Below are positions 43 through 12,641 of a stretch of 64,000 nt of DNA, one piece after another. The DNA is from an uncultured Acidobacteriota bacterium (GTDB lineage Bacteria > Acidobacteriota > Thermoanaerobaculia > Multivoradales > UBA5704): the NCBI GenBank assembly GCA_963770895.1, contig CAVYRF010000002.1:1-64000 (forward strand), written 5' to 3'. The position numbers and the translations under genes are program-made. Each line of letters opens with the position of its first letter. The first letter of the stretch is position 1. Below the pieces are notes generated by a model. That model saw only the letters and a list, made by a program, of their open reading frames with translations. It was not told where the DNA came from and made no database searches.

Positions 43-831
43 TCACTTGCGGCGCATCGCGCGCGCCATCGTCCGCATGCGGTCGGTGGAATTGGATTCC
101 TCTTCGCGGATGGAAGAGCCGGTCAGCGCCAAAAACGCCTGCTCCAGGCTGTCGGCGCCCGTCTGTGCCTTCAGCTCCGCGGTCGAACCCAAAGCCACGA
201 TGCTGCCATGGTCGATGATCGCGATCCGCTGCGCCACCCGCTCCGCCTCCTCCATATAGTGGGTGGTCAGGAACACCGTCACGCGCTCCTTTTCGTTCAG
301 CTGCTTGACATGCGTCCACAGCTGGTTGCGCGTCTGCGGGTCCAGCCCCAGCGTCGGTTCGTCCAGGAACAAGATCCGCGGCGTATGCAGCAGCCCGCGC
401 GCGATCTCCAGCCGCCGCCGCATCCCGCCCGAAAACTGCTTCACCGGATCGCCCCGCCGCTCCCAAAGCTCGAACAGACCCAGCAGCTCCTCGATCCGCT
501 GCCGCCGCACCTTGCGCGGCACGCTGTACAAGATGCCGTGCAGATCCATGTTCTCGTACGCCGTCAGCTCGTCATCAACGCTGGGGTCCTGAAACACAAT
601 GCCAAACCGCCGCCGCACCTCGTCATGCGCCACCGCCGGATCCAGCCCATCGATCTCCACCCGGCCGCTGGTCGGCCGCAACAACGTCGTCAACATCTTG
701 ATCGTCGTCGTCTTCCCCGCCCCGTTCGGCCCCAGAAACGCAAAGATCTCCCCTTCCGGGATCTCAAACGAAATCCCCGCCACCGCCACCAGCTCCCCGT
801 ACTTCTTGACCAGGTTCTCCACCCGAATCAT
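43..831 (-). CDS. ABC transporter ATP-binding protein (DrrA/multidrug type)
   Basis: Walker A GPNGAGKTT, signature FSGGMRRR, Walker B ILFLDEPT, H-loop TTHY; start taken at MIRVENL. Confidence 0.93.
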   Translation of the reverse strand: MIRVENLVKKYGELVAVAGISFEIPEGEIFAFLGPNGAGKTTTIKMLTTLLRPTSGRVEIDGLDPAVAHDEVRRRFGIVFQDPSVDDELTAYENMDLHGILYSVPRKVRRQRIEELLGLFELWERRGDPVKQFSGGMRRRLEIARGLLHTPRILFLDEPTLGLDPQTRNQLWTHVKQLNEKERVTVFLTTHYMEEAERVAQRIAIIDHGSIVALGSTAELKAQTGADSLEQAFLALTGSSIREEESNSTDRMRTMARAMRRK

Positions 832-960
832 CGCCAACGCCGCACCCTCACCATGTCTCGTCGTAGTTCCAGGTAGTTCCAGAGGATCGTCCAGGATCGC
901 ACCGCAGCTTCGCCCAACCACACCGCTACACCACCAACAGCATCGCCAATCGCATCGCTA

Positions 961-1041
961 CCGCCCCACCGCCTCGCCCGCCCTGCGCCGCGCCCACCCG
1001 CCCCACCGCCTCGCCCGCCCTGCGCCGCGCCCACCCGCCCC
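961..1041 (+). repeat. 37-bp tandem repeat, about 2.2 copies
   Basis: ccgccccaccgcctcgcccgccctgcgccgcgcccac at 961-997 and 998-1034, partial third copy. Confidence 0.85.
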
Positions 1042-1076
1042 GCCGGCGACCGAAGCATACATGACCGGCCAACCCG

Positions 1077-1109
1077 CGGTGGTGACATCGGTGGTGACAT
1101 GCCTGTCAC
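1077..1109. promoter_or_regulatory. Direct repeat plus palindrome upstream of recombinase (putative protein-binding site)
   Basis: cggtggtgacat x2 (1077-1100) overlapping GTGACA-N4-TGTCAC (1094-1109); TATGAT -10-like hexamer at 1175-1180. Confidence 0.4.
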
Positions 1110-1210
1110 ACCCCCGAGGCGCCGCAGAGCCCTCGTTTCACCACCGCGGCTCCAGCAAGGGCGCCGCCACCACCTATGATTCCCCTCCCTGGCAACTTCG
1201 AGGAGGGGAC

Positions 1211-2155
1211 ATGACTCTTGATGAAGCCGTCACGATCTTTCTGTCACATTGTCGTTACGAAAAGAACCTCAGCCAGAAGACTCTGCGCGCCTACAACATC
1301 GACCTCCGCCAGCTGATGGACCACCTGCGCCTCCTCGACCCCACCCTCCCCTCCCTGCCCGATCTCGACAAAGCCCTCCTCCGCCGCTACATCCAAAGCC
1401 TCTTCGGCCGCAATGCCGACAAGACCATCAAGCGCAAAGTCGCCACCCTCAAGGTCTTCTTCCACTTCCTGGAGCGAGAAGACCTCATCGGCATCAACCC
1501 CTTCCGCAAAATGGACGTCCGCATCCGCGAAGCCCGCCGCCTCCCCCGCACCGTCCCCCTGGCCGACCTCCGAGCCCTCTTCCGCTACCTTTACGCCCAC
1601 AAGCGCACCCTCCAGCAGCCCGACACCCCCGCCTACCGCCGCGTCGTCCGCGACATCGCCGTCCTCGAGCTCCTCTTCGCCACCGGCGCCCGCGTCTCCG
1701 AAATCTGCACCCTCACCCAGCAAAACGTCGATCTCCGAGAAGGCTACGTCCGCATCTTGGGAAAAGGCGCAAGGGAGCGTATAATTCAGCTCTGCGATGA
1801 CGAAACTCTGGAGGCGCTAAGGGCTCACCAAGCCCTCGGCCCCTCCCCAGAAGGAGGCTACTTCTTCTCCAACGGCAGCACCGGCCGCCACCTCTCCGAC
1901 CAATCCGTCCGCACCATGCTCAAAACCACCGTCCGCCGAGCCGGCCTCCACCTCCACCTGACCCCCCACATGATCCGCCACACCATCGCCACCCTCCTCC
2001 TGGAAAGGGGCCTCGACATCCGCTACATCCAGCACCTCCTGGGCCACAGCTCCATCTCCACCACCCAGATCTACACCAGCGTAGAAGCCGGCCACCAACG
2101 CCGCCTCCTAACCGCCCACCACCCCCGCCGCCATCTGCTTCAAAACATCGCATGA
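1211..2155 (+). CDS. Tyrosine recombinase/integrase (XerC/D-like)
   Basis: GGAGGGG SD then ATG at 1211; SAM-like N-domain; catalytic R (TGARVSE), K (GKGARER), HxxR (HMIRH), LLGH and Y (TQIY) all present. Confidence 0.95.
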   Translation: MTLDEAVTIFLSHCRYEKNLSQKTLRAYNIDLRQLMDHLRLLDPTLPSLPDLDKALLRRYIQSLFGRNADKTIKRKVATLKVFFHFLEREDLIGINPFRKMDVRIREARRLPRTVPLADLRALFRYLYAHKRTLQQPDTPAYRRVVRDIAVLELLFATGARVSEICTLTQQNVDLREGYVRILGKGARERIIQLCDDETLEALRAHQALGPSPEGGYFFSNGSTGRHLSDQSVRTMLKTTVRRAGLHLHLTPHMIRHTIATLLLERGLDIRYIQHLLGHSSISTTQIYTSVEAGHQRRLLTAHHPRRHLLQNIA

Positions 2156-2445
2156 GCACCAACGTAGCGATAACTCGGAATTATCAAGCCTCGCACCTGG
2201 AGGGGCACGTGACGGACAGCGAACTCGGAGTGTGCGGAGAACCGCCTGGACTGACGCAGGTTGTCCTGGCATTTCTCAAGGCCAGATTCATGTGCCTTGG
2301 ACTGGTCCCAGATCTCCTCGGGAAAGTCGACAGCTCCAAGTCGCGGTGGAAGCCATGTTCCCAATCGCTCCATTCGCAGGGCGCATCCGACCTGTCGCAC
2401 CTTCGGGTTCATTTTCTCGGGTCGCTCAGCCAACCGCCTGACTAA
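2152..2445 (+). CDS. Small hypothetical ORF reading through the left repeat (ATG 2152 or GTG 2209)
   Basis: ATGA overlap with recombinase stop; in-frame GTG start MTDSEL with SD identical to the aminotransferase start; no recognisable domain. Confidence 0.3.
   Translation: MSTNVAITRNYQASHLEGHVTDSELGVCGEPPGLTQVVLAFLKARFMCLGLVPDLLGKVDSSKSRWKPCSQSLHSQGASDLSHLRVHFLGSLSQPPD
2169..2227 (+). repeat. Left inverted repeat / putative recombination site
   Basis: gataactcggaattatcaagcctcgcacctggaggggcacgtgacggacagcgaactcg equals reverse complement of 9741-9798 apart from one extra G; core GATAA-CTCGGAA-TTATC. Confidence 0.92.
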
Positions 2446-2471
2446 TCTCTACTTCAAAAAGGTGCTCGCGC

Positions 2472-5400
2472 ATGTCACACGTGCAAGTGAGTTGTGGAAC
2501 ATCGCCCAATTCACTGCGATGGAGGCTTGGGCAGTACGGCGGCCACGCCTTTGACGATCTTCTCTTCGACGTCCTTACCCGAGATCTCCAGCAGCAGGAT
2601 CCGAATATCCGAGTGCGACAGACTCCTCGCGTCGAGGATGGTGGCCGTGACGTCGAGATAGTGACCGACAAGATACTGAAGCTGGCTGGCGTCGTGATTC
2701 ATCCACCTGGCGCAGCCCCGCATAGGATCTTGGTCGAAGTGAAGACGATAACGTCGGGCTCCAAGCCACGGCTTCCATTTTCTGCGTTTGGCAAAAACTA
2801 CCACCAGCTTCGCGGGCTGGATTATTCCCACTTCGTTCTCGTCACGAATGCCTCGATCTCCCCGCGAACGGCGCGAGAGGTGTCACAGTCCTTCTCCGCA
2901 GCCGGGAAGCAATTCGTCCTTATCGACGAGTATCTCCTCTGGACCTTGCTTGATAAGCATGGCTTGGCAGGCCGATTACCAGAACGTTCGGAGTTGACTC
3001 CTACCGAGCTCGTGATCGAAACGCAGGTCAAGCGCACGGTGCAGGACGAAGCCGTGATCATCGACCTCGACCTGATGCTCCGCAACTACTCGAACATGCC
3101 GAGGCGCGTCACTGTCGAGAATCGCAGCGATGTGACCTGGCGGCAGACCATTCCCGAGGTGACCCGCACGATTGAGCCCGGCCGGTTCGAGACACTGCAC
3201 CTGATCGCCAAGAGCAGGAGACGCGAGACCGGCGATCTGGAGCTTCGCGTCCATGATCAGGATGGGGCGGAGTACCCTCTTCGCTTCGAAGCCCGTGACA
3301 TTGCCTTCGACTTTAAGCCGCCTCTCGTCGGAGAGCGACATCACCGCTGCCTCAACGAGCTGGTCGTCGCTCTCGGCGCAGACCTTCCGAGCCACCTTGT
3401 CAGCGTGGTCGGTGGAGCTGGACGAGGCAAAACACGCCTGATTGAAGAGGCTCTTGCCCGTACCGACAGGGCCACCCGCAAGGTCGTCCGTGCGGTGGTC
3501 GATCCTGATCGGTCGGAGCCAGCACTGGAAGCCGTGCTCAGCGGGATTCATGCCGCGCTCGGCGACACAGCTGCCCATCGAAACCTGAAGCCAGGCCGTC
3601 ACCCGTCCACGGCAGTCCGATTGCTCGAGGTGCTGACACAGCTCGACCATGCGTTCTACTCCGTCGTCATCTTGCTGGAAGACCTTCATCACGCAAGCCA
3701 CCCGGTCTTTACTCTCCTGCGCGACTTCCTGCGCATCGACCGCTCTGGGCAGTGTCCCTTGACTTTCGTCATTTCAGGACGCGATGACTACTCCTTCCCA
3801 AACGATGCATATTTCGCTCTCCTGGACGTGCTTGCCCACGCCGCGGCAGAGACGCCCGCCGTCGGGGAGTGTCGCGTAAGCACGATTCGCGTCCCTGATT
3901 TAACGCCCGAGGACTCTCGGCTTTTGATTCGCGCCATCGTGCGCGATGCACCAGCGTACGCCATGGATCGCCTCGAGGCCATTGGCGAGAATGTGCCTTT
4001 CTTCATTGTGCAGACCATAGAATATATGCTGGAAACAGGCATCGCCATTTTGTTGTCGCGCGAGAGCGTTGGCATTCCCAACCCGGCGGTGTTCGGTTCG
4101 CGAGCCGGCTTCCCAGCTGCAATGAAGTCTATTCTTACGGGCAGGTTGACGGCTCTCGACGCGCAGCCCGAAGGGCTCCGTCTGCGCCACTTTCTGGGAG
4201 TCTCTTGTTTTTTTGGCCAGCTGATACCCCAGGATATCGAGTTCGCGCTGATTGGAAACGTATCTGTTGATGAGGTCGAAGACCTGCTAATTGGCCGGCG
4301 ATTTCTCAAGCGCGGCGATGATGGATCGCTCCAGTGGTACCACGAGAACATCCTGCACCTCCTGCAAGAACTGGTACACGATGACGGCAGTGCGACGCTG
4401 CTGGCGCAGGAGATCGCCCTGACGCCGGCCCTGTTCAAGCACTTTACCGGCTGGCGTGCCGGCAGAATCCTGAGCGAGGCCGGGCTTCATCGTGCCGCAT
4501 TGCCGTATTTTACCACCATTAGCTCGCTTGCGGATGCAATGACCAACTTCAGCTCCGTTAACGTGGACCATACCTGCTTCGACTATTTATCGTGTACGTT
4601 CGATTCCGCAATAGCCTGTGGCGAGCAGCCGTCCCGGCTAATTCGTCTACTACTGCTACAGACGTATATCGCCGTGCACCACTACTCTGGACGGCATGGG
4701 CCCGAGACCGCAGCGCATGCCCTCTCGCGGCTGCCCCTCGTTCCGGCCGATGACGCGGAATTGCTCGAAGCGCGCGCCAAGCTCTTGCAACTGCGCGCGC
4801 ATGGGCTTATGGACATCGGTGAAATCGGCCGTGCAACCAAGCTGTTCTTGGAAATGGAGGGCTCGGTTAAACAGCCCGATTCGATCCTCAGGCAGCCAGA
4901 CCTGCTCTTCGATCTCTACAATCGCCTTCAAGACATCTATCGCATGCACAACCACCTAGCCGTCTGCGAACGGTACGGCGAGCTGGCCGGTCATGCGGCA
5001 CGTCAATCTGGAGGTGAGCTGCAGACTGTGGCGATGGGCGACAGTGCCATTGTTTACCACTACGTCGATACCCCGCGGTGTATCCGCCTTCACGAGGAGG
5101 CCCTTGCGTTTGCTCACCTCTTCGGCGCGAAGCGTCATGTCGCCCACATCGAGGTCGGCCTCATCGTGGCCAGCTTGAGCGACGCAGGAAGCAACGTCGA
5201 ACGCCTCAAAGATCTCATGGCCCGCGCGATCGAGCTTCTGCGCCAAGCGCTCGACAAGTCGTATGGGTCGCTTCTGGCACGCATCTACTTGCTACTGGCC
5301 ACGGTTGCGCATCTCCTCGCAGCGTACGGTGTCACGTCGAAGTCAGCGGTCGACAAGTACATCGAGCTCAGTCTTAATGCCGCAGTGATGTACCGGTCTG

Positions 5401-5825
5401 GCTACGACGCGTGGATGATCTACAACCTAAAGGCAATAGCAGCCTTGAGCGCCGGCCGGCCGATTAAGGAGGTAGGTGCCTACTTCGCTACGGCACTGCG
5501 CCTGCTGCGCCGTAGCGCTCTTCTCTTCCTCGGGAACCTCGACCTAACCTTCGAGAATATCATCGTTTTAAGCAACATCCTACGCTTCCTATCCGAACAC
5601 GGGACAGAGCGAGAGAAGTTCTCTATCGCACTTGAAATACGCCATTATGAAGACGTGGACGATGTTGCGCGAGGAGATCCGGAAGCCGACCTCTCTTGGG
5701 GGAAAGTCCGCTTCTCACAGCTTGAGCAAGATGTCCTCAACCATCGCATCATCGGGCAGACCGTTGTGCCAGACTCAGTGTTATTCGACAACGTGACTGG
5801 CTACGCTATTTGCGTTACTTGCTGA
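2472..5825 (+). CDS. Mrr-like PD-(D/E)XK nuclease - STAND/AAA NTPase - helical (TPR-like) repeat protein, Avs-like
   Basis: N-terminal QTPRVEDGGRDV...ILVEVK nuclease motif; Walker A GGAGRGKT; Walker B VILLEDLH; long alpha-helical C-terminus; 1117 aa. Confidence 0.8.
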   Translation: MSHVQVSCGTSPNSLRWRLGQYGGHAFDDLLFDVLTRDLQQQDPNIRVRQTPRVEDGGRDVEIVTDKILKLAGVVIHPPGAAPHRILVEVKTITSGSKPRLPFSAFGKNYHQLRGLDYSHFVLVTNASISPRTAREVSQSFSAAGKQFVLIDEYLLWTLLDKHGLAGRLPERSELTPTELVIETQVKRTVQDEAVIIDLDLMLRNYSNMPRRVTVENRSDVTWRQTIPEVTRTIEPGRFETLHLIAKSRRRETGDLELRVHDQDGAEYPLRFEARDIAFDFKPPLVGERHHRCLNELVVALGADLPSHLVSVVGGAGRGKTRLIEEALARTDRATRKVVRAVVDPDRSEPALEAVLSGIHAALGDTAAHRNLKPGRHPSTAVRLLEVLTQLDHAFYSVVILLEDLHHASHPVFTLLRDFLRIDRSGQCPLTFVISGRDDYSFPNDAYFALLDVLAHAAAETPAVGECRVSTIRVPDLTPEDSRLLIRAIVRDAPAYAMDRLEAIGENVPFFIVQTIEYMLETGIAILLSRESVGIPNPAVFGSRAGFPAAMKSILTGRLTALDAQPEGLRLRHFLGVSCFFGQLIPQDIEFALIGNVSVDEVEDLLIGRRFLKRGDDGSLQWYHENILHLLQELVHDDGSATLLAQEIALTPALFKHFTGWRAGRILSEAGLHRAALPYFTTISSLADAMTNFSSVNVDHTCFDYLSCTFDSAIACGEQPSRLIRLLLLQTYIAVHHYSGRHGPETAAHALSRLPLVPADDAELLEARAKLLQLRAHGLMDIGEIGRATKLFLEMEGSVKQPDSILRQPDLLFDLYNRLQDIYRMHNHLAVCERYGELAGHAARQSGGELQTVAMGDSAIVYHYVDTPRCIRLHEEALAFAHLFGAKRHVAHIEVGLIVASLSDAGSNVERLKDLMARAIELLRQALDKSYGSLLARIYLLLATVAHLLAAYGVTSKSAVDKYIELSLNAAVMYRSGYDAWMIYNLKAIAALSAGRPIKEVGAYFATALRLLRRSALLFLGNLDLTFENIIVLSNILRFLSEHGTEREKFSIALEIRHYEDVDDVARGDPEADLSWGKVRFSQLEQDVLNHRIIGQTVVPDSVLFDNVTGYAICVTC

Positions 5826-7608
5826 GCTCTGCCTGTCGCGTCTTCGTGATCAAGGCGCCCTCAATGACGAGCGCATCTAGCCCGCAGGACAGGAACGCGC
5901 GGATTGAATCTTCCGGCGTCTCCACCATTGGCTCTCCGGCCAAGTTGAACGATGTGTTCAGGAGCACCGCAAGACCAGTTCGCCGATGAAACGCGGCCAA
6001 CAGCGCCTGCAGAAATGGTTCCTGACTATCCACAGTCTGAACTCGTGCCGTACCGTCGATGTGGGTAATGGCCGGTAACAGCGCCTGATACGCTGCTCGG
6101 ACATCGCACGCGAAGAGCATGAATGGCGAGGGCTGGATAAGGTCAAAGATCTCTGCCGCATGCTCGGCGAGGACCATCGGAGCGTAGGGCCGAAACGCTT
6201 CACGGAACTTTACGTAGGCGTTCAAGTGGTCTTTCATAGAGGGAGATCGCGGATCTGCAAGGATCGAACGATGCCCCAAGGCCCTGGGGCCCAGTTCGCT
6301 GCGACCACGCAGCAGGCCGACGGTCCAGCCCTGCTCGATGAGGGCGGCGACCTCTTCGACCAGGACATGATCGTCGTGCCACTCGTATGCGAGCCCGTGC
6401 CGAGCGATCGCTGCCTCAATAGCGTGTCGGTCGTAGGAGAGTCCAGCATAGGGAAGAACGGGAGGGACGGCAGGCTCAGCCGGATGTAATGTGGGCCTAG
6501 GAGTCCGTCCCTTGAGCAATGCACTTACTGCAAACGCGGCCCCCACTGCGTGACCTTCGTCACCGCAGGCAGGCATGGCAAAGATCTCGCTGAAGAGCCC
6601 GGCCTTCAGGAGCTTGTGGTTCGCCACGCAGTTGAGGAAGACACCTCCAGATACACATAGCTTCGGCTCACCCAAGCGGTCACGGGTGTAGCGCGCAAGG
6701 CCGAGCAGCGCCTCTTCGGTGAACTTCTGAATCGTACTCGCCGCATCGGCGCGGTGCAGCCGAATGAACGCACCTATGGACATCGACTCAGTTTCGGCGA
6801 CGTTTTCGACTTCACGGATGATGTCGGCGAGGGTGAGCGAGTAACTGAAGTCGGTCACTGGCCACATGCGCGGATCTACTAGAGGCCTTCCATAGGACGC
6901 AAGGCCCATTGTCTTGCCGTTCTGTTCGTTGCCGAACCCTAAGAAGTAAGTGAACTGCTCGTACTTTCGACCGATACCAACGGTCTGTGTCGCGTAGCGG
7001 TCAGGCATCTGGGAAGCGCAGTAGAAGAACGGCCGGTCGTAGATGTCGTGCAGGAACGACTGCAAGCGACGATCGCACAGTTCCAGGGTGTCGCCATCGG
7101 CGAGGAACAGGCTCTCGCCCTCCATGCCCACGGCAAGGTCGGCCGCTCCTGGTGCCCCAACCGACTCCCTCCCAGGCGGCCCGACGAGATCGCCGGCGCC
7201 GTCACAGACTAGGATCGCGCAGCGCTGGAATCCGGAAAGTGCGCGTACACTCCAGGCGTGTGCGAGATGGTGCGTCACCGGAATACACGTGATGTCGGGA
7301 AGGTCAAAATAAACGCTCAGATCGTCTTCAAAACGACCGGCAAGCTTGTTGACCTCGCAGTTCTCGAAGCTAAATCCGACAGCGTCGACATCGTGAATCG
7401 TGCGGCCAACCTGAGCAAGGACAGCTGCGATGGCCTGGATCGGTATCTGGCAACCGGACGAGAACTTCACGCGGTCGAGCCGCTCCTGCGCGATGTGCCC
7501 GATTAGCCTGCCATTCTCCACCAGCGCCGCGCTGCGGTCGTGGCCTATATGGACGCCGAGCACTAAGCCAGAACCGCGGCATGTGACGATCGAAGGCGAG
7601 AGCTGCAT
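5815..7608 (-). CDS. O-carbamoyltransferase, NodU/CmcH/TobZ family
   Basis: GHDRSAALV, QERLDRVK, HHLAHA, DGAGD, GKTMGLASYG, SELGPRALGHRSILADPR, KFREAFRPYAP, NTSFN. Confidence 0.93.
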   Translation of the reverse strand: MQLSPSIVTCRGSGLVLGVHIGHDRSAALVENGRLIGHIAQERLDRVKFSSGCQIPIQAIAAVLAQVGRTIHDVDAVGFSFENCEVNKLAGRFEDDLSVYFDLPDITCIPVTHHLAHAWSVRALSGFQRCAILVCDGAGDLVGPPGRESVGAPGAADLAVGMEGESLFLADGDTLELCDRRLQSFLHDIYDRPFFYCASQMPDRYATQTVGIGRKYEQFTYFLGFGNEQNGKTMGLASYGRPLVDPRMWPVTDFSYSLTLADIIREVENVAETESMSIGAFIRLHRADAASTIQKFTEEALLGLARYTRDRLGEPKLCVSGGVFLNCVANHKLLKAGLFSEIFAMPACGDEGHAVGAAFAVSALLKGRTPRPTLHPAEPAVPPVLPYAGLSYDRHAIEAAIARHGLAYEWHDDHVLVEEVAALIEQGWTVGLLRGRSELGPRALGHRSILADPRSPSMKDHLNAYVKFREAFRPYAPMVLAEHAAEIFDLIQPSPFMLFACDVRAAYQALLPAITHIDGTARVQTVDSQEPFLQALLAAFHRRTGLAVLLNTSFNLAGEPMVETPEDSIRAFLSCGLDALVIEGALITKTRQAELSK

Positions 7609-7624
7609 GGGTCCTCGTTGTCTC

Positions 7625-8383
7625 TCAAATCGTCATGTTGGGGCCAGGATAGGCCCGATGATCGCAGCGAGAGCACACCGGTCCAGCCCTTCGCCTATCG
7701 CCGCGCATGAGATGCTGCCGGAGCTGCTCCATCGATGCGCTGCGCCAGATGTCCTCTAGACGAGAACGTCCCAGGTTGCCCAAGACGACCTCGCGACGCG
7801 CATCTTCATGGCAGAGAACTACGTCACCGTTGACAGTCACGATCAGCATCTCAGACGGCGCATGACAGGCCCGTCGCAGCGGCCTCTTGACACTGAGGAC
7901 GGCACCGGCGCGCCCGGACAGATCGAGATCACGAGGAAATTGCACAAGTTGATGGAGCCGACGTCGCATCGGCTCCCCGCCGTGGCGAGTTACGATGAAG
8001 AACTCGACACCCGCGTCGAGGAGGCTGGCATAGCGGGCGTCACTGAGAAGGTCCCCGTTGCTGTAGAGCACGAGATGTGCGAGCGGTAGCCAAGCGCGGG
8101 CGATTGCGATGAGGTCCTCGAGGTCCTTGCGGACTAGCGGCTCGTTGTAAAAATGAAACGACAATCGGCCGCTGAACTCGATCCCAGCAAGCTGAGCCAC
8201 GATACTGCGATATAGCTCTATTTCCATGAATAAGGATGACGACGTTGAGCCGAGCGTGCCGTTCGGGCAATAAGAACAGGTGCGGTTGCAGCGCACACCC
8301 ACTTCGATTTCGACGACGCTCGGCCAGGGAGCGGAGGGTGGACACGAATTCGTGCCATTTGAAAGTGAGGAGTTGGAAGCCAT
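7625..8383 (-). CDS. btrN: Radical SAM/Twitch dehydrogenase, BtrN-like (inosamine dehydrogenase)
   Basis: EIEVGVRCNRTCSYCP, GRLSFHFYNEPL, YSNGD, CHAPS..VTVNGDVVLCHED, C-terminal CSRC; about 250 aa, collinear with BtrN as recalled. Confidence 0.8.
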   Translation of the reverse strand: MASNSSLSNGTNSCPPSAPWPSVVEIEVGVRCNRTCSYCPNGTLGSTSSSLFMEIELYRSIVAQLAGIEFSGRLSFHFYNEPLVRKDLEDLIAIARAWLPLAHLVLYSNGDLLSDARYASLLDAGVEFFIVTRHGGEPMRRRLHQLVQFPRDLDLSGRAGAVLSVKRPLRRACHAPSEMLIVTVNGDVVLCHEDARREVVLGNLGRSRLEDIWRSASMEQLRQHLMRGDRRRAGPVCSRCDHRAYPGPNMTI

Positions 8384-9759
8384 TAGATCCCTTCGTGAAT
8401 TGTGAGCTCGCAGGCGCGGGCCTTTAGCGCTGGCGCATATGTGCGGACTTTGATGATGGCCTTGACGACGTCCTGCATATCGTCGGGAGCAGAAAGCAGC
8501 ATTTGATGAGGAAACGTCACGACCTCTGCGTAGGCCTGGGCGGCGCGAGGAAGTGCAAAGCGGCTAGGCTCCAACGCGTCGCGTACTTCCTGGTTGCGAG
8601 CAGCCATCGGTGCTTTAGTTGGTACATAAAGAGGATTTGCGTTCAGCGGCGCATCAATGCCACGGATGTCTACACTCAGCTCGGCCGCAAGAGCCGGAAC
8701 GATTTCGAGAGCCGAGAGGCCAGCGAAGACTGAGCGATTCACGCGCGCGGCTAATCTGTAGTAAGTGGGTCGGTTAACATCGGCACCTGGCACTATCAGT
8801 TCGATACCGTCGATGGATGCGATGCTAGCGGCGAGCGTGTCGACACAGGTCATCCGGTGGCCATTTTCCCGATCGAGTCGGCCGAGGCCCTCAAGCAGCA
8901 GCGCGGACTGAAACTCGGTGAGGCAAAGATTCTGTCCGGCCACTTCCCCGGCGGCCCTTAGCTCGTAACCGTCAGGCGCGATAGCGTGGCGTGCGCCAAT
9001 CGCTGGCAGTTGCTCTATGTCGAGGTTATTCGCCGGCGCACTAAAAGGGTCAGAACGATACTGCCTACCGTCGGCTCGAAGTTGCTGCAACTTCGCGTAG
9101 AGCGTGGGGTCGTCGGTAACGCATAGACCACCCTCACCGCTGGTAAGCAGCTTGCTCTGCTGAGTACTAAAGACGCTGATCGCGCCGAATGATCCTATTT
9201 GACTGCCGCGCCACGTTGCGCCGTGTGCCTGGGAGGCGTCTTCGATTAGCGTGACGCCTTGTCGTTGGGCCATGTCAAGGTATGCAGCGACATCACAGAT
9301 TGAGGAATACATGTGAATCATTAGAATGGCGCGCGTCTTTGGCGTGATCGCGCGTTCGATCGTAGAGGCCGATGCGCAAAGGCTCGCGGAATCAATGTCA
9401 ACGAAAATGGGACGCGCGCCAAGTCTGGTGATCGCGGCCGGAACTGCAACCCAGGTGAGGCCAGTCAGGATGACCTCATCTCCCGGACCGACGTCGAGTG
9501 CCTGTAGCGCGATTGAGAGGGCTGCTGATCCATGCGAGCAGGCGACGCAGTACTTTCGTCCAACATAGGCCGCGAATGCTCTGCTTATCCGCCGCTCGAA
9601 GGTGTCTGGAGCGTTGGACCAACCGCTGATAGCCCATTTCCCAGAGTGGAGAACCTCAAGTACGCAGCGTTGTGTAGCAGCAGTGGCTACAGGCCATTTA
9701 GGCCACGGCCGCTGGCGGACTGGATGGCCCCCAAACAACGCGAGTTCGCTGTCCGTCAC
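8383..9759 (-). CDS. btrR: DegT/StrS PLP aminotransferase, BtrR/NeoB-like inosose aminotransferase
   Basis: VLHSGKWAISG, FERR, GLTWVA, IEDASQAHG, FSTQQSKLLTSGEGG (PLP Lys), LRADGR; TAATG coupling to the radical SAM gene. Confidence 0.82.
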   Translation of the reverse strand: MTDSELALFGGHPVRQRPWPKWPVATAATQRCVLEVLHSGKWAISGWSNAPDTFERRISRAFAAYVGRKYCVACSHGSAALSIALQALDVGPGDEVILTGLTWVAVPAAITRLGARPIFVDIDSASLCASASTIERAITPKTRAILMIHMYSSICDVAAYLDMAQRQGVTLIEDASQAHGATWRGSQIGSFGAISVFSTQQSKLLTSGEGGLCVTDDPTLYAKLQQLRADGRQYRSDPFSAPANNLDIEQLPAIGARHAIAPDGYELRAAGEVAGQNLCLTEFQSALLLEGLGRLDRENGHRMTCVDTLAASIASIDGIELIVPGADVNRPTYYRLAARVNRSVFAGLSALEIVPALAAELSVDIRGIDAPLNANPLYVPTKAPMAARNQEVRDALEPSRFALPRAAQAYAEVVTFPHQMLLSAPDDMQDVVKAIIKVRTYAPALKARACELTIHEGI

Positions 9760-9798
9760 GTGCCCTCCAGGTGCGAGGCTTGATAATTCCGAGTTATC
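9741..9798 (-). repeat. Right inverted repeat / putative recombination site containing SD and start of the aminotransferase
   Basis: 58-bp inverted copy of 2169-2227. Confidence 0.92.
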
Positions 9799-9929
9799 CC
9801 ACTCACACGGGACGGGCCGCTGTTGCTCAACGAAATAATCCAGGTAATCACCGGGTGAGACTACGTCAGCTGGTGGTCGTGGAGGCAGGTGCTTTGCAGG
9901 AGCCAGATTCCACTCTCAAGGAGAACTTC

Positions 9930-11249
9930 ATGAACCGGCAGGGTGTCCACATTAAACCTTCGCAAGGAAAGTTAGGAGTTTTGTTGGTGGGACTGGGCGC
10001 AGTCTCCACTACCTTCATCGCAGGAGTCGAGGCTGTCAAAGCCGGGCTCGGAAAGCCGATCGGTTCGCTGACGCAGATGGGGACCGTCCGCCTCGGCGAG
10101 CACTCGGATGACCGGGCGCCTCGCATCGCCGACTTCGTACCCCTTGCACACCTTGAGGATCTGGTCTTCGGCGCCTGGGATATTTTTCCCGACGACGCCT
10201 ATGCTATCGCCTGTGGGGCCAAAGTCCTCGAGCGTGGGTTGCTTGACCGGCTTCGTCCCGAGTTGGAGGCTATCCGTCCCATGAAGGGGGTTTTCAACCC
10301 TCGCTACGTCAGACGCCTCAATGGCACCCACGTCAAGGAAAATTGTAATAAGTGGGAGCTAGCCGACATGCTAAAAAGTGATATCGAGGAGTTCCAGCGC
10401 CAGCGCGGGATTCAGAGGTCGGTGATGGTCTGGTGCGGCTCAACGGAAAGTTACTTGTGCGCCTCTGAGGTCCACCAGTCCCTCGACGATTTTGAGGCAG
10501 GACTGAGGAAAAGCGACGATGCGATCCCGTCAAGCATGATCTACGCTTATGCTGCCCTGTCACTAGGAATTCCTTTTGTCAACGGTGCGCCAAACTTGAC
10601 GTTGGACGTGCCGATCTTCCGCGAGCTGGCGAAGAAACAGCTGGTTCCGATCTGCGGCAAGGACCTAAAAACCGGTCAGTCGCTGATGAAGACCATCATC
10701 GCCCCTGGCCTCAAGGCCCGACTGCTCGGCCTCGAAGGCTGGTTCTCGACGAACATCTTGGGCAACCGTGACGGTGAGGTGCTGGACGACCCCGAGTGCT
10801 TTAGGACTAAAGAGCGCAGCAAACTCTCGGTTTTGGAGCATATCCTTGAGCGTCATCTGTACCCGGATCTCTATGGCGACTTCCATCACCAGGTCCAAAT
10901 CCACTACTACCCGCCACGGGGAGACAACAAAGAGGGATGGGACAACGTTGACATCTTCGGCTGGCTCGGCTATCCGATGCAGATTAAAATCGATTTCCTT
11001 TGCCGGGACAGCATTCTGGCTGCTCCGCTTGTGCTCGACCTTGTCCTCTTTCTTGACCTCTGCCACCGCGCTGGCATGCACGGCATACAGGAGTGGCTCT
11101 CGTTTTATTTCAAGAGCCCGATGACGCCTCCGGGCCTTCATCCGGAGCACGATCTTTTTGTCCAGCTCACGAAGCTTCAAAATACTTTACGGTTCCTGAG
11201 AGGCGAGGGACAGGTCACGCACCAAGAGCTTGATTACAAACCGGAGTGA
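9930..11249 (+). CDS. ino1: myo-inositol-1-phosphate synthase
   Basis: AAGGAG SD; GLGAVSTT, VWCGSTE, NGAPN, GKDLKTGQ, TNILGNRDG, GDNKEGWD, CRDSILAAPLVLDL. Confidence 0.93.
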   Translation: MNRQGVHIKPSQGKLGVLLVGLGAVSTTFIAGVEAVKAGLGKPIGSLTQMGTVRLGEHSDDRAPRIADFVPLAHLEDLVFGAWDIFPDDAYAIACGAKVLERGLLDRLRPELEAIRPMKGVFNPRYVRRLNGTHVKENCNKWELADMLKSDIEEFQRQRGIQRSVMVWCGSTESYLCASEVHQSLDDFEAGLRKSDDAIPSSMIYAYAALSLGIPFVNGAPNLTLDVPIFRELAKKQLVPICGKDLKTGQSLMKTIIAPGLKARLLGLEGWFSTNILGNRDGEVLDDPECFRTKERSKLSVLEHILERHLYPDLYGDFHHQVQIHYYPPRGDNKEGWDNVDIFGWLGYPMQIKIDFLCRDSILAAPLVLDLVLFLDLCHRAGMHGIQEWLSFYFKSPMTPPGLHPEHDLFVQLTKLQNTLRFLRGEGQVTHQELDYKPE

Positions 11250-11321
11250 ACGCCCTGCAGCAGCTGGTGAAGAACCTGACTTCGCATCCTGACACGCGAA
11301 TGGACAGGGCGCCGGCCCGGC

Positions 11322-12641
11322 TCAGCGGGTGGCGGAGAGGTCGGCGCCTTTGGCTTCGCGGCCGGCTAGGGTGATTGCGGCGAGGAGGAGGGAGACCAGG
11401 AGGACGGTTAGGGCTAGGACGGGGGGGTAGCGGCCGGCGTAGCGGCGCTCGACTAGCTTGGCTTGGATGACGGAGTTGCGGGAGGAGAGGAGGTTGCCGA
11501 GCTGGTAGGTGAGGCCGGGGAAGGTGCCGCGGAGGCTGGGTGGGGAGAGCTCGTTGAGGTGGGCGGGGACGACGCCCCAGGCGCCTTGGACCATGAACTG
11601 CATCAGGAAGCCACCTAGGGCCAGCAGGGGGGCGGTGGTGGCGTAGGCCCACAGGGGGATGACGGGGATGGCCAGGAGGGCGGCAAGGACGATGGCGCGG
11701 CGGCGGCCCAGGCGCTCGGACCAGGCGCCGAAGCAGATGCCTCCCAGGAGGGCGCCGATGTTGTAGATCACTGCGATGGTGCCGACGGCGGCGGGCGAAA
11801 AGCCGTGGTTCTTCTCCAGGAAAGTGGGATAGAGGTCCTGGGTGCCGTGGCTCAGGGAGTTGAAGGCGAACATGAGGACGGCCAGGAAGAGAAAGGTTCC
11901 CAGGTGGGCGAGGACGCCGCTGCGCCACGGCTGCGGCGATGGGCTGGCGGTGTTGGCGGCGTTCGCGGCGTCGGCGGCATTGGCCTCGCTGAGGGCAGCG
12001 ACGGGGGACGCTTGCGGCGGGGCGAGCGCGCTTGCGGGGTCGCGGCCCTCGCGCCAGGCTGGCGATTCGTCGACTTGCGCGCGGATGTAGAGCACCAGCA
12101 GGGCTGGCAGGGCGCCGACGATGAAGAGGCCGCGCCAGCCGACGAAGGGGAAGAGGGTGCCGTAGAAGAGCGCGGCTCCCAGGTAGCCGACGACGTAGCC
12201 TTCCTGCAGGAGGCCGGAGAAAAAGCCGCGGCCTTGGGCTGGCAGGGTTTCGAAGGCTAGGGCGGCGCCGACGCCCCATTCGCCTCCCATTGCGATTCCG
12301 AAACAGGCGCGCAAGACCAGGAAGACGGGGAGGGAGGGCGCAAAGGCGGAGGCCAACTCGAAGATCGAATAGCAGACGATGTTGATCATCAGGGTGGGCC
12401 GGCGGCCGTAGCGATCGGCGAGGCGGCCGAACAGGAAGGCTCCGACTGGACGCATGGCGAGGGTCAGGAAGATTGCCTCGGCGATGGCGGAAACCTTGGT
12501 GTGAAACTCCGCGGCGATGGCGCTGACGCAGAAGACCAGGATGAAGTAGTCGAGCGCATCCAGCGACCAGCCCAGGAAGCAGGCGACAAAGGTGCGGCGC
12601 TGCGAGGGCGTGAGCCGGCGGAAGGGGCCGATGAGATCCAT
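11322..12641 (-). CDS. MFS transporter, sialate/lactate:H+ symporter (SHS) family
   Basis: GWSLDALDYF, GRLADRYGRR, GIAMGGEWG, HGTQDLYPTFL; 12 TM pattern. Confidence 0.9.
   Translation of the reverse strand: MDLIGPFRRLTPSQRRTFVACFLGWSLDALDYFILVFCVSAIAAEFHTKVSAIAEAIFLTLAMRPVGAFLFGRLADRYGRRPTLMINIVCYSIFELASAFAPSLPVFLVLRACFGIAMGGEWGVGAALAFETLPAQGRGFFSGLLQEGYVVGYLGAALFYGTLFPFVGWRGLFIVGALPALLVLYIRAQVDESPAWREGRDPASALAPPQASPVAALSEANAADAANAANTASPSPQPWRSGVLAHLGTFLFLAVLMFAFNSLSHGTQDLYPTFLEKNHGFSPAAVGTIAVIYNIGALLGGICFGAWSERLGRRRAIVLAALLAIPVIPLWAYATTAPLLALGGFLMQFMVQGAWGVVPAHLNELSPPSLRGTFPGLTYQLGNLLSSRNSVIQAKLVERRYAGRYPPVLALTVLLVSLLLAAITLAGREAKGADLSATR

Follow-up and report, generated by a model that had tools for sequence, protein, structure and literature searches.

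Layout of the recombinase locus

The 64-kb window analyzed in this study (positions 1 to 64,000, forward strand, of contig CAVYRF010000002.1, assembly GCA_963770895.1) originates from an uncultured Acidobacteriota bacterium. It begins at a contig end, and the genome comprises 8.16 Mb in three contigs. Near this end lies the gene of a Xer-like tyrosine recombinase, followed by a segment bounded by the two arms of an inverted repeat. Two convergent units are located between the arms: an orphan open reading frame (ORF) and a STAND-type NTPase gene on the plus strand, and the genes of a DegT-family aminotransferase, a radical SAM protein, and a carbamoyltransferase on the minus strand (Table 1). 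We consider this locus likely to be a site-specific DNA inversion switch of the expression-site type.

The arms of 59 nucleotides (nt; 2169 to 2227) and 58 nt (9741 to 9798) match perfectly in a 36-nt and a 25-nt block, which are shifted by a single G. The left arm has GGAGGGG at 2199 to 2205 and the right arm has GGAGGG (CCC at 9763 to 9765); all other positions match. This repeat and its 1-nt difference had been proposed in an earlier sequence-only reading of the window, and both were reproduced in the assembly sequence. The two copies are the only ones in the whole genome. The remaining inverted repeats within 14 kb are at most 32 nt long and 70-91% matched; hence, the repeat is not a chance occurrence. 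Each arm reads inward through a Shine-Dalgarno (SD)-like GGAGGG(G), a GTG (2209; 9759 on the minus strand), and six common codons (VTDSEL). The outer ends of the arms are identical 17-bp cores, at 2169 to 2185 on the plus strand and 9782 to 9798 on the minus strand. The core has the form GATAACT-N4-ATTATC, that is, short inverted half-sites around an asymmetric spacer. No additional core-like site with up to 3 mismatches was found in the window. The idea that the adjacent inositol-phosphate synthase gene had been flipped out between extra sites was unsupported, because this search revealed no third core-like site.

Table 1. Features at and around the recombinase locus (positions in the window; aa, amino acids)
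Feature	Position	Strand	Evidence or remark
ABC ATPase gene	43-921	-	Outside the segment, left
Xer-like tyrosine recombinase, 314 aa, presumed invertase	1211-2155	+	Pfam Phage_integrase 7.3e-38 and SAM-like N-domain
Leader reading frame	2152-2211	+	From ATG in ATGA overlap with recombinase stop, through core to GTG
Proximal core recombination site	2169-2185	+	GATAACTCGGAATTATC
Left arm of inverted repeat, 59 nt	2169-2227	+	Core, 13 nt, SD GGAGGGG (2199-2205), GTG 2209, six codons (VTDSEL)
Orphan ORF	2209-2445	+	78 aa from GTG, 97 aa from ATG 2152
STAND-type NTPase, 1117 aa	2472-5825	+	Pfam AAA_22/AAA_16; probably Mrr-like nuclease, AAA_22, and TPR
Carbamoyltransferase (NodU-like)	5815-7608	-	Last gene of biosynthetic unit; Pfam Carbam_trans_C 2.5e-63 and Carbam_trans_N
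Radical SAM/SPASM protein	7625-8383	-	Pfam; start overlaps DegT stop (TAATG)
DegT/DnrJ/EryC1-family aminotransferase	8383-9759	-	First gene of biosynthetic unit; Pfam 1.3e-74
Right arm of inverted repeat, 58 nt	9741-9798	-	GGAGGG; distal core 9782-9798
Distal outer flank	9799-9929		From core to divergent myo-inositol-1-phosphate synthase gene
myo-inositol-1-phosphate synthase gene	9930-11249		Divergent from DegT gene, outside the segment

ORFs were called by a simple longest-ORF rule. An MFS gene also lies outside the segment, on its right side. The G+C content is 55-62% across 2200-11200 and 63-77% in the flanks; this low-G+C island takes in the inositol-phosphate synthase gene and thus extends beyond the segment. 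An Rfam search of 900-11400 gave no match at E values up to 1.

The nearest Atlas clusters of the 1117-aa NTPase carry Mrr_cat, AAA_22, and TPR_12 (scores 0.97-0.99), which is a lead only. The protein had no match among PADLOC models (those of Avs included), NCBIfam models, or PDB sequences. Its counterpart in the related genome G032 showed weak matches to the Avs2 and CHAT models of PADLOC. An identity as an anti-phage STAND protein of the Avs/AVAST type was not supported for the window protein, as no PADLOC Avs model matched.

The recombinase and its core sites across relatives

The recombinase scored 226 and 214 bits on the NCBIfam XerC and XerD models, whose cut-offs are 335 and 330, and was also under the XerS cut-off. 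The FimB/E-type models gave 55-64 bits against cut-offs of 221-222. Chromosome dimer resolution by XerC/XerD was rejected, because the scores were under the equivalog cut-offs and two inverted sites surround genes in place of a single dif. An integron (IntI/attI/attC) was rejected because the integron-integrase model TIGR02249 scored 88.6 bits, far under its cut-off of 265, with the match limited to residues 226-296; attC sites were not searched for.

Relatives of the same family carry orthologous recombinases that are 52-78% identical and form a set distinct from Xer paralogues (35-40% identity). The window's own genome holds further Xer-like paralogues with 35-36% identity to the recombinase. 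R161, H253, R256, H279, and Y288 (R..HxxR..H..Y) are invariant in 14 orthologues and can be read as the probable catalytic residues.

Several features in and before the recombinase gene were recorded. G+C content at third codon positions (GC3) dips to 0.53-0.60 at 1720-1830, compared with 0.87-1.0 elsewhere in the gene, and the dip coincides with the region's best sigma-70-like match (TTGGGA-17-TATAAT, 1757-1785, 10/12 match). This possible intragenic promoter patch is only noted here, since the dip occurs in some orthologues but not consistently. In the interval between the ABC ATPase and recombinase genes, upstream of the recombinase start, a 37-nt C-rich unit is repeated three times in tandem at 949-1059, two of the units being identical. 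The direct repeat GGTGGTGACAT, present twice, and a palindrome (TGACA-N4-TGTCA) follow at 1078-1110, about 100 nt upstream of the recombinase start; this element could be an operator for the recombinase promoter.

The core recurs beside the orthologous recombinases. GATAACTnGnnATTATC was found downstream of the recombinase gene in 5 of 12 loci (the window and 4 of 11 relatives). The exact pattern GATAACTNGNNATTATC was present in 19 of 92 family genomes, and the reversed control gave no hits. All eight same-contig core pairs in these genomes were arranged plus then minus, with the GATAAC end always outward. A wider set comprised 81 loci, namely the window and 80 genome contigs found with the recombinase alignment. 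A core was called when it lay downstream of the recombinase and had at most one mismatch to GATAACT-N4-ATTATC. A proximal core was present in 47 of the 81 loci, and 30 also had an inverted partner at a core-to-core distance of 1.6-7.6 kb. The number of paired loci is a lower bound, because some loci end early (in G032, for example, the partner is 9.5 kb away). The N4 spacer was identical within all 30 pairs, with 20 distinct N4 sequences between loci; such covariation is the prediction of a spacer-homology requirement. The recombinase gene was outside the repeats at every locus of the set. The relatives belong to Thermoanaerobaculia (Acidobacteriota), and more distant members (42-58% identity) occur in Longimicrobium, Bacteroidota, Cloacimonadota, and Minisyncoccia. 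The repeat of the window is thus the predicted cognate site of the adjacent Xer-like recombinase.

Some loci showed further arrangements. In the closest relative (L044, the same as G009, positions 3397-10945; recombinase 76-78% identical), a core pair spanning 6.3 kb is found upstream of the recombinase gene, with this gene pointing away from it, and the cargo consists of a 1221-aa protein on one side versus a DegT-like gene and a 443-aa protein on the other. In L025 (G003), a Mutator-family transposase gene (8823-10214) lies within the invertible segment, with an AAA_16-TPR gene on one side and an ATP-grasp/decarboxylase unit on the other. The Bacteroidota loci L111/L112, L105, and L094 have a second core pair, or extra cores with another spacer, near the recombinase; these may be tandem modules. 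A soil contig from run X4, 96% identical to the recombinase 3' end and with a loose end at window position 2159, has the core spacer AGAG and an unrelated inner sequence, which points to replacement of the core and its cargo behind a recombinase gene that stays conserved.

The sequence-only reading had tied the repeat to translation starts, and this link holds family-wide, in that cargo genes begin at the inner core edge. Measured from the inner core end, an ORF of at least 100 aa begins at -3 to +5 nt in 38 of 77 sites (random positions, 174 of 3000) and within +25 nt of the core at 55 of 77 sites (random, 484 of 3000); the Fisher p value for ORF starts at the core edge versus random positions was ~4e-25. 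In several loci of the Bacteroidota type, the recombinase gene terminates within the core, and the cargo gene opens either with an ATG made of the three final core bases or with one a few nt farther on. An all-purine N4 spacer was counted in 9 of 18 paired loci with recombinases of at least 52% identity and in 0 of 12 of the remoter loci, most of them from Bacteroidota. Wherever ribosome-binding sites are in use, the core could serve as one in addition, a role that the purine spacers would suit; base composition is an alternative reason.

In the window, the repeat runs 42 nt inward past the core; the relatives examined share 17-22 nt only, and an exact search of metagenome contigs with the inner repeat gave no match. 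The DegT N-terminus aligns from residue 1 with its G032 orthologue. Two metagenome contigs (L124 and L125) carry orthologous DegT-radical SAM-carbamoyltransferase/NTPase cargo (72-77% aa identity), in which DegT starts 12-26 nt after a core with the N-termini VMDNEP and VTDNEL. The string GGAGGGCACGTGACGGA of the right arm recurs in L125, an independent orthologous contig, which corroborates the G3 version. The 42-nt inner extension is thus the DegT 5' end. By the DegT alignment, the L124/L125 starts, and the L125 string, the G3 copy is the original and the left arm a copy placed before the NTPase unit.

The orphan ORF behind the left arm had no Pfam match, and a search among 1.84 billion representatives returned itself and weak low-complexity matches. 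Neither the genome nor the fetched loci hold a second copy, and the same homologue searches found no relative of the 244 nt after the left arm. An antisense ORF of 97 aa had no homologue among proteins of 53-170 residues, the lengths searched. Codon-position G+C is gene-like in sense and antisense frames alike, a measure that does not decide coding. We lean towards the 78/97-aa product being a by-product. The proposal that MTDSEL is a shared N-terminus with two alternative bodies lost ground accordingly, since the second body, the orphan ORF, is without a homologue.

Across the family, the segments pair an enzyme with a second, often defense-like, protein. The enzymes include CDP-alcohol phosphatidyltransferase, UbiA, PAP2, methyltransferase, GT2/GT4, aminotransferase, ATP-grasp, and DegT with radical SAM; the second proteins include TIR (ThsB-like hits), CHAT-NACHT (Avs2-like hits), AAA_16/TPR NTPases, and pentapeptide proteins. 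The paired units are unrelated in the window and in the cargo pairs of relatives, and are not paralogues of one family. A CDP-alcohol phosphatidyltransferase of ~190 aa and a partner of ~370 aa recur together in eight loci of four phyla (L046, L052, L059, L063, L106, L107, L116, and L119). Pfam did not match the partner in any of the eight loci, and PDB had no match for the one member searched. The label 'RcgA' for this partner was dropped; it was a minority Atlas label (20% of the rank-11 cluster) and led to unrelated plasmid-transfer papers.

Orientation of the segment, promoters, and competing explanations

Homologous cargo occurs in both orientations among relatives. The cargo of G024 and G092 (64-66% aa identity) is oppositely oriented relative to the recombinase, and so is the ATP-grasp/AAA_16 pair in L067 versus L100. 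In the eight loci with the phosphatidyltransferase pair, the transferase is recombinase-proximal in four and distal in four. Several contigs end at or near cores, at distances of 0 nt (G090 C121), 3 nt (G106 and L068), 6 nt (L085), 38 nt (G018), 88 nt (L071), 123 nt (G090 C181), and 150 nt (G026). Most contigs ending at cores have names in the style of k-mer short-read assemblers. With k-mers above 100, a 17-nt repeat alone should not break an assembly; mixed orientation would. We infer from these breaks that both orientations were probably present in the samples. These comparisons support the segment between the repeats as a putative invertible unit of the neighboring recombinase.

Promoter signals were compared between the two flanks. 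The extended -10-like motif TGNTANNNT (mostly TGCTAnAnT) occurs in the recombinase-to-core spacer, in 14 of 46 proximal versus 2 of 29 distal flanks (Fisher p 0.013); in loci with at least 52% identity, a hand count gave 12 of 33 versus 0 of 18. Taken together with the translation starts, this points to a family design of a recombinase-side promoter, a core, and a promoterless cargo gene, in which the recombinase side is the likelier promoter side. For the window, the recombinase stop lies only 13 nt from the core and the spacer has no promoter motif; the simplest reading is that transcripts start at the promoter of the recombinase gene itself or at one located within this gene.

The inversion switch that we favor would operate as follows. 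The recombinase would recognize the two inverted 17-bp cores, and strand exchange in the identical spacers would flip the 7.6-kb segment. Each of the two convergent units starts just inside a core. Transcription would enter most likely from the recombinase side and reach the recombinase-adjacent unit, so that the sequenced orientation would express the NTPase unit and the inverted one the biosynthetic operon. The copy of the DegT 5' end (SD, GTG, and six codons) before the NTPase unit would create the orphan ORF. The overlap of the recombinase stop with an ATG (ATGA), the leader frame, and the G-run difference would follow from this layout; they may aid translation and are not needed to explain the locus.

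Several observations weigh against this switch. No flipped read or contig of the window's organism was found. Of the 12 public runs that a search returned, none was recorded as RNA; runs X1 to X4 yielded only short, low-depth contigs, which leave 2069-2293 uncovered and none of which spans either arm, and they gave no joints or indels. The counts of 47 proximal cores and 30 pairs overstate independence, as the loci are mutually related and L111 and L112 are near-duplicates. Generic sigma-70 scores are alike in proximal and distal flanks (7.65 vs 7.59, p 0.55), and the window has no extended -10 motif in the last 150 nt before the core. The myo-inositol-1-phosphate synthase gene lies divergently beside DegT, and its G032 homologue is the first gene of a DegT-type unit. 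A divergent promoter in 9799-9929 could thus drive DegT in the present state; a simple scan of this interval revealed no sigma-70-like site. In the four DegT-type loci (the window, G032, L124, and L125), no DegT end adjoins an orthologous recombinase, the position of the recombinase being unseen in L124 and L125. The earlier claim that the flipped state is ON for biosynthesis is thus plausible in so far as the recombinase side is the likelier promoter side, and is weakened by a possible promoter in 9799-9929 towards DegT.

Two further explanations concern the leader and the G-run, and both are compatible with the inversion switch. The first holds that the fourth G of the left copy is an assembly error, a homopolymer miscall, so that the arms are identical and the leader ends at GTGA in both states. 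We regard this as somewhat unlikely, yet the best placed of the alternatives. The arms match everywhere apart from that base, the G3 form is confirmed by the L125 orthologue and nothing confirms G4, and a three-contig assembly of this size is typical of long reads, in which homopolymer length is the main type of error. On the other side, a one-base slip in a G-run is equally a common real mutation.

The second, put forward in the sequence-only reading, takes the G4/G3 difference as real and selected, with translation coupled in the flipped state only, from the recombinase through a 19-aa leader to DegT. We consider this unlikely. The individual elements are all present in silico. The recombinase TGA (2153-2155) overlaps the ATG at 2152-2154, which opens the ORF of 97 aa at 2152-2445, and the GTG of the left arm, corrected here to 2209-2211, is in frame with this ATG. 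A flip within the cores gave the leader MSTNVAITRNYQASHLEGT followed by a stop (19 aa), whose TGA overlaps the DegT GTG (GTGA), and the DegT stop overlaps the radical SAM start (TAATG). Tight spacing is in part a family trait, as compact members have the recombinase stop in or beside the core and a cargo start within 12-31 nt. The 96%-identical relative of run X4 keeps ATGA and an open frame into the core, which is weak support from 30 letters and our own translation.

The family comparison speaks against a function of the indel and leader. Among 46 related loci, of which 37 had a callable cargo start, an ORF bridging recombinase and cargo occurred in only four besides the window, all with recombinases of at most 52% identity, and three of the four had only 12-31 nt between stop and start. 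None of the 24 relatives with at least 52% identity and a called cargo start has such an ORF (gaps of 29-1719 nt). The distance from core to GTGA is 23 nt in the window versus 13 nt in L125; therefore, the frame through the core is not conserved. Nor is coupling special to the flipped state, because in the present state an in-frame GTG/TTG ORF in the distal flank ends at the same TGA. No SD was seen before the ATG at 2152, and such a combination would arise by chance in roughly 5-10% of such layouts, by a rough estimate that is not a tool result.

A third explanation, that fixed promoters in both flanks express both units, or that inversion has ceased and the locus is an evolutionary leftover, appears quite improbable. 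It would account for the lack of flipped molecules among the low-depth contigs of runs X1 to X4, none of which crosses the arms, for the position of DegT beside a functionally related divergent gene, and for the missing proximal promoter motif. Against it, the recombinase is full length with all family-invariant residues kept, the cores are perfect and identical, the cargo genes leave no promoter room inside the segment, and relatives show both orientations and contig breaks at cores. Finally, that the repeats are terminal inverted repeats of a transposon-like mobile cassette is extremely improbable: the lower G+C content of 2200-11200, the widely varying cargo, and the close run X4 relative with the same recombinase end and another spacer and downstream sequence would suit it, but at no locus do the repeats enclose the recombinase, the arms lack a flanking direct duplication, the same cargo pair stands in both orientations beside the same recombinase family, and inverted sites of a tyrosine recombinase lead to inversion rather than excision.

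Implications and comparison with known systems

Phase variation by inversion is known mostly from host-associated bacteria, where it mostly concerns promoters, surface proteins, and restriction specificity. The present locus suggests that soil Acidobacteriota and several other phyla have in common a conserved module in which inversion exchanges entire, unrelated genes behind a recombinase; often a defense-like NTPase or TIR protein is on one side and biosynthetic enzymes are on the other. Should the switch operate as proposed, cells would make mutually exclusive choices between such functions, and the 17-bp core, whose spacer covaries, would serve as a compact inversion site that is portable and brings its own translation start. 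A broader proposal is tentative and on balance rather doubtful: the window may be a member of an undescribed two-state switch family across phyla (Acidobacteriota, Gemmatimonadota, Bacteroidota, Cloacimonadota, and Patescibacteria), in which the core site doubles as the translation-initiation region and a cell expresses an immune-type effector (STAND NTPase, TIR, or pentapeptide protein) or small-molecule/envelope-modifying enzymes, never both. This would amount to bet-hedging between suicide-type immunity and a surface or metabolite change. Cultured carriers exist (Prolixibacteraceae, Parabacteroides, and Dysgonomonas), so the idea can be tested.

Several known systems share part of this design. 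In integrons, ORF-11, a short ORF across the tyrosine-recombinase site attI1, was proposed to help translation of the next promoterless gene. The window has a short ORF crossing a recombinase site as well. Distinct from integrons, which combine attI with attC and capture cassettes, the window carries two inverted copies of one core, arranged for inversion (attC was not searched for), and the likeness to attI1 drawn in the sequence-only reading is superficial. Xer recombination includes XerC/XerD with dif and the single-recombinase systems XerS/difSL and XerH/difH, with the site beside the gene. The window resembles these in the sequence family of its recombinase, the ATAA...TTAT inner symmetry, and the site beside the gene, but dif is one site at the terminus, whereas here two inverted sites flank cargo. 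In FimB/FimE-fimS and other promoter invertons, a small promoter-bearing element flips before fixed genes. These share ON/OFF phase variation by a tyrosine recombinase through short inverted repeats; in the window, it would be the genes that flip behind a presumably fixed promoter.

The gene-altering programmed inversions of Milman et al. (2023; PMC9881135) resemble the window in having inverted repeats at gene starts on opposing strands beside a recombinase, with alternative products. Those inversions swap downstream parts of one gene, in contrast to the whole unrelated genes at 17-bp cores considered here, and the search of that study accepted only repeats of 22 bp or more of which one copy lay entirely within a coding sequence. 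Such a filter would miss the window family. The literature searched and the text of Milman et al. contain no description of this recombinase-and-core family. From these sources, the principle of inversion is known, and the family, its core, and the swapping of whole genes appear new.

The Mycoplasma inversion switches come closest in design, namely vpma of M. agalactiae (Xer1), vsp of M. bovis, and vsa of M. pulmonis (HvsR) (PMC2268961). Their sites lie in the 5' untranslated region, within 72 nt upstream of start codons, there is one unique promoter, and inversion of the vpma type puts a silent gene behind this outside promoter, with the 5' regions of the alternative genes being common. The window shares the Xer-like recombinase beside the locus, the sites just upstream of start codons, and the common 5' regions; a single outside promoter, a feature of vpma, is predicted for the window. 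The Mycoplasma loci shuffle many paralogous surface-lipoprotein genes, whereas the window has one pair of sites, with a STAND NTPase and a biosynthetic operon as its two unrelated units, and occurs in soil Acidobacteriota, with relatives in several other phyla. By analogy, vpma is closer to the window than the integron leader, and indicates that a design of this kind works.

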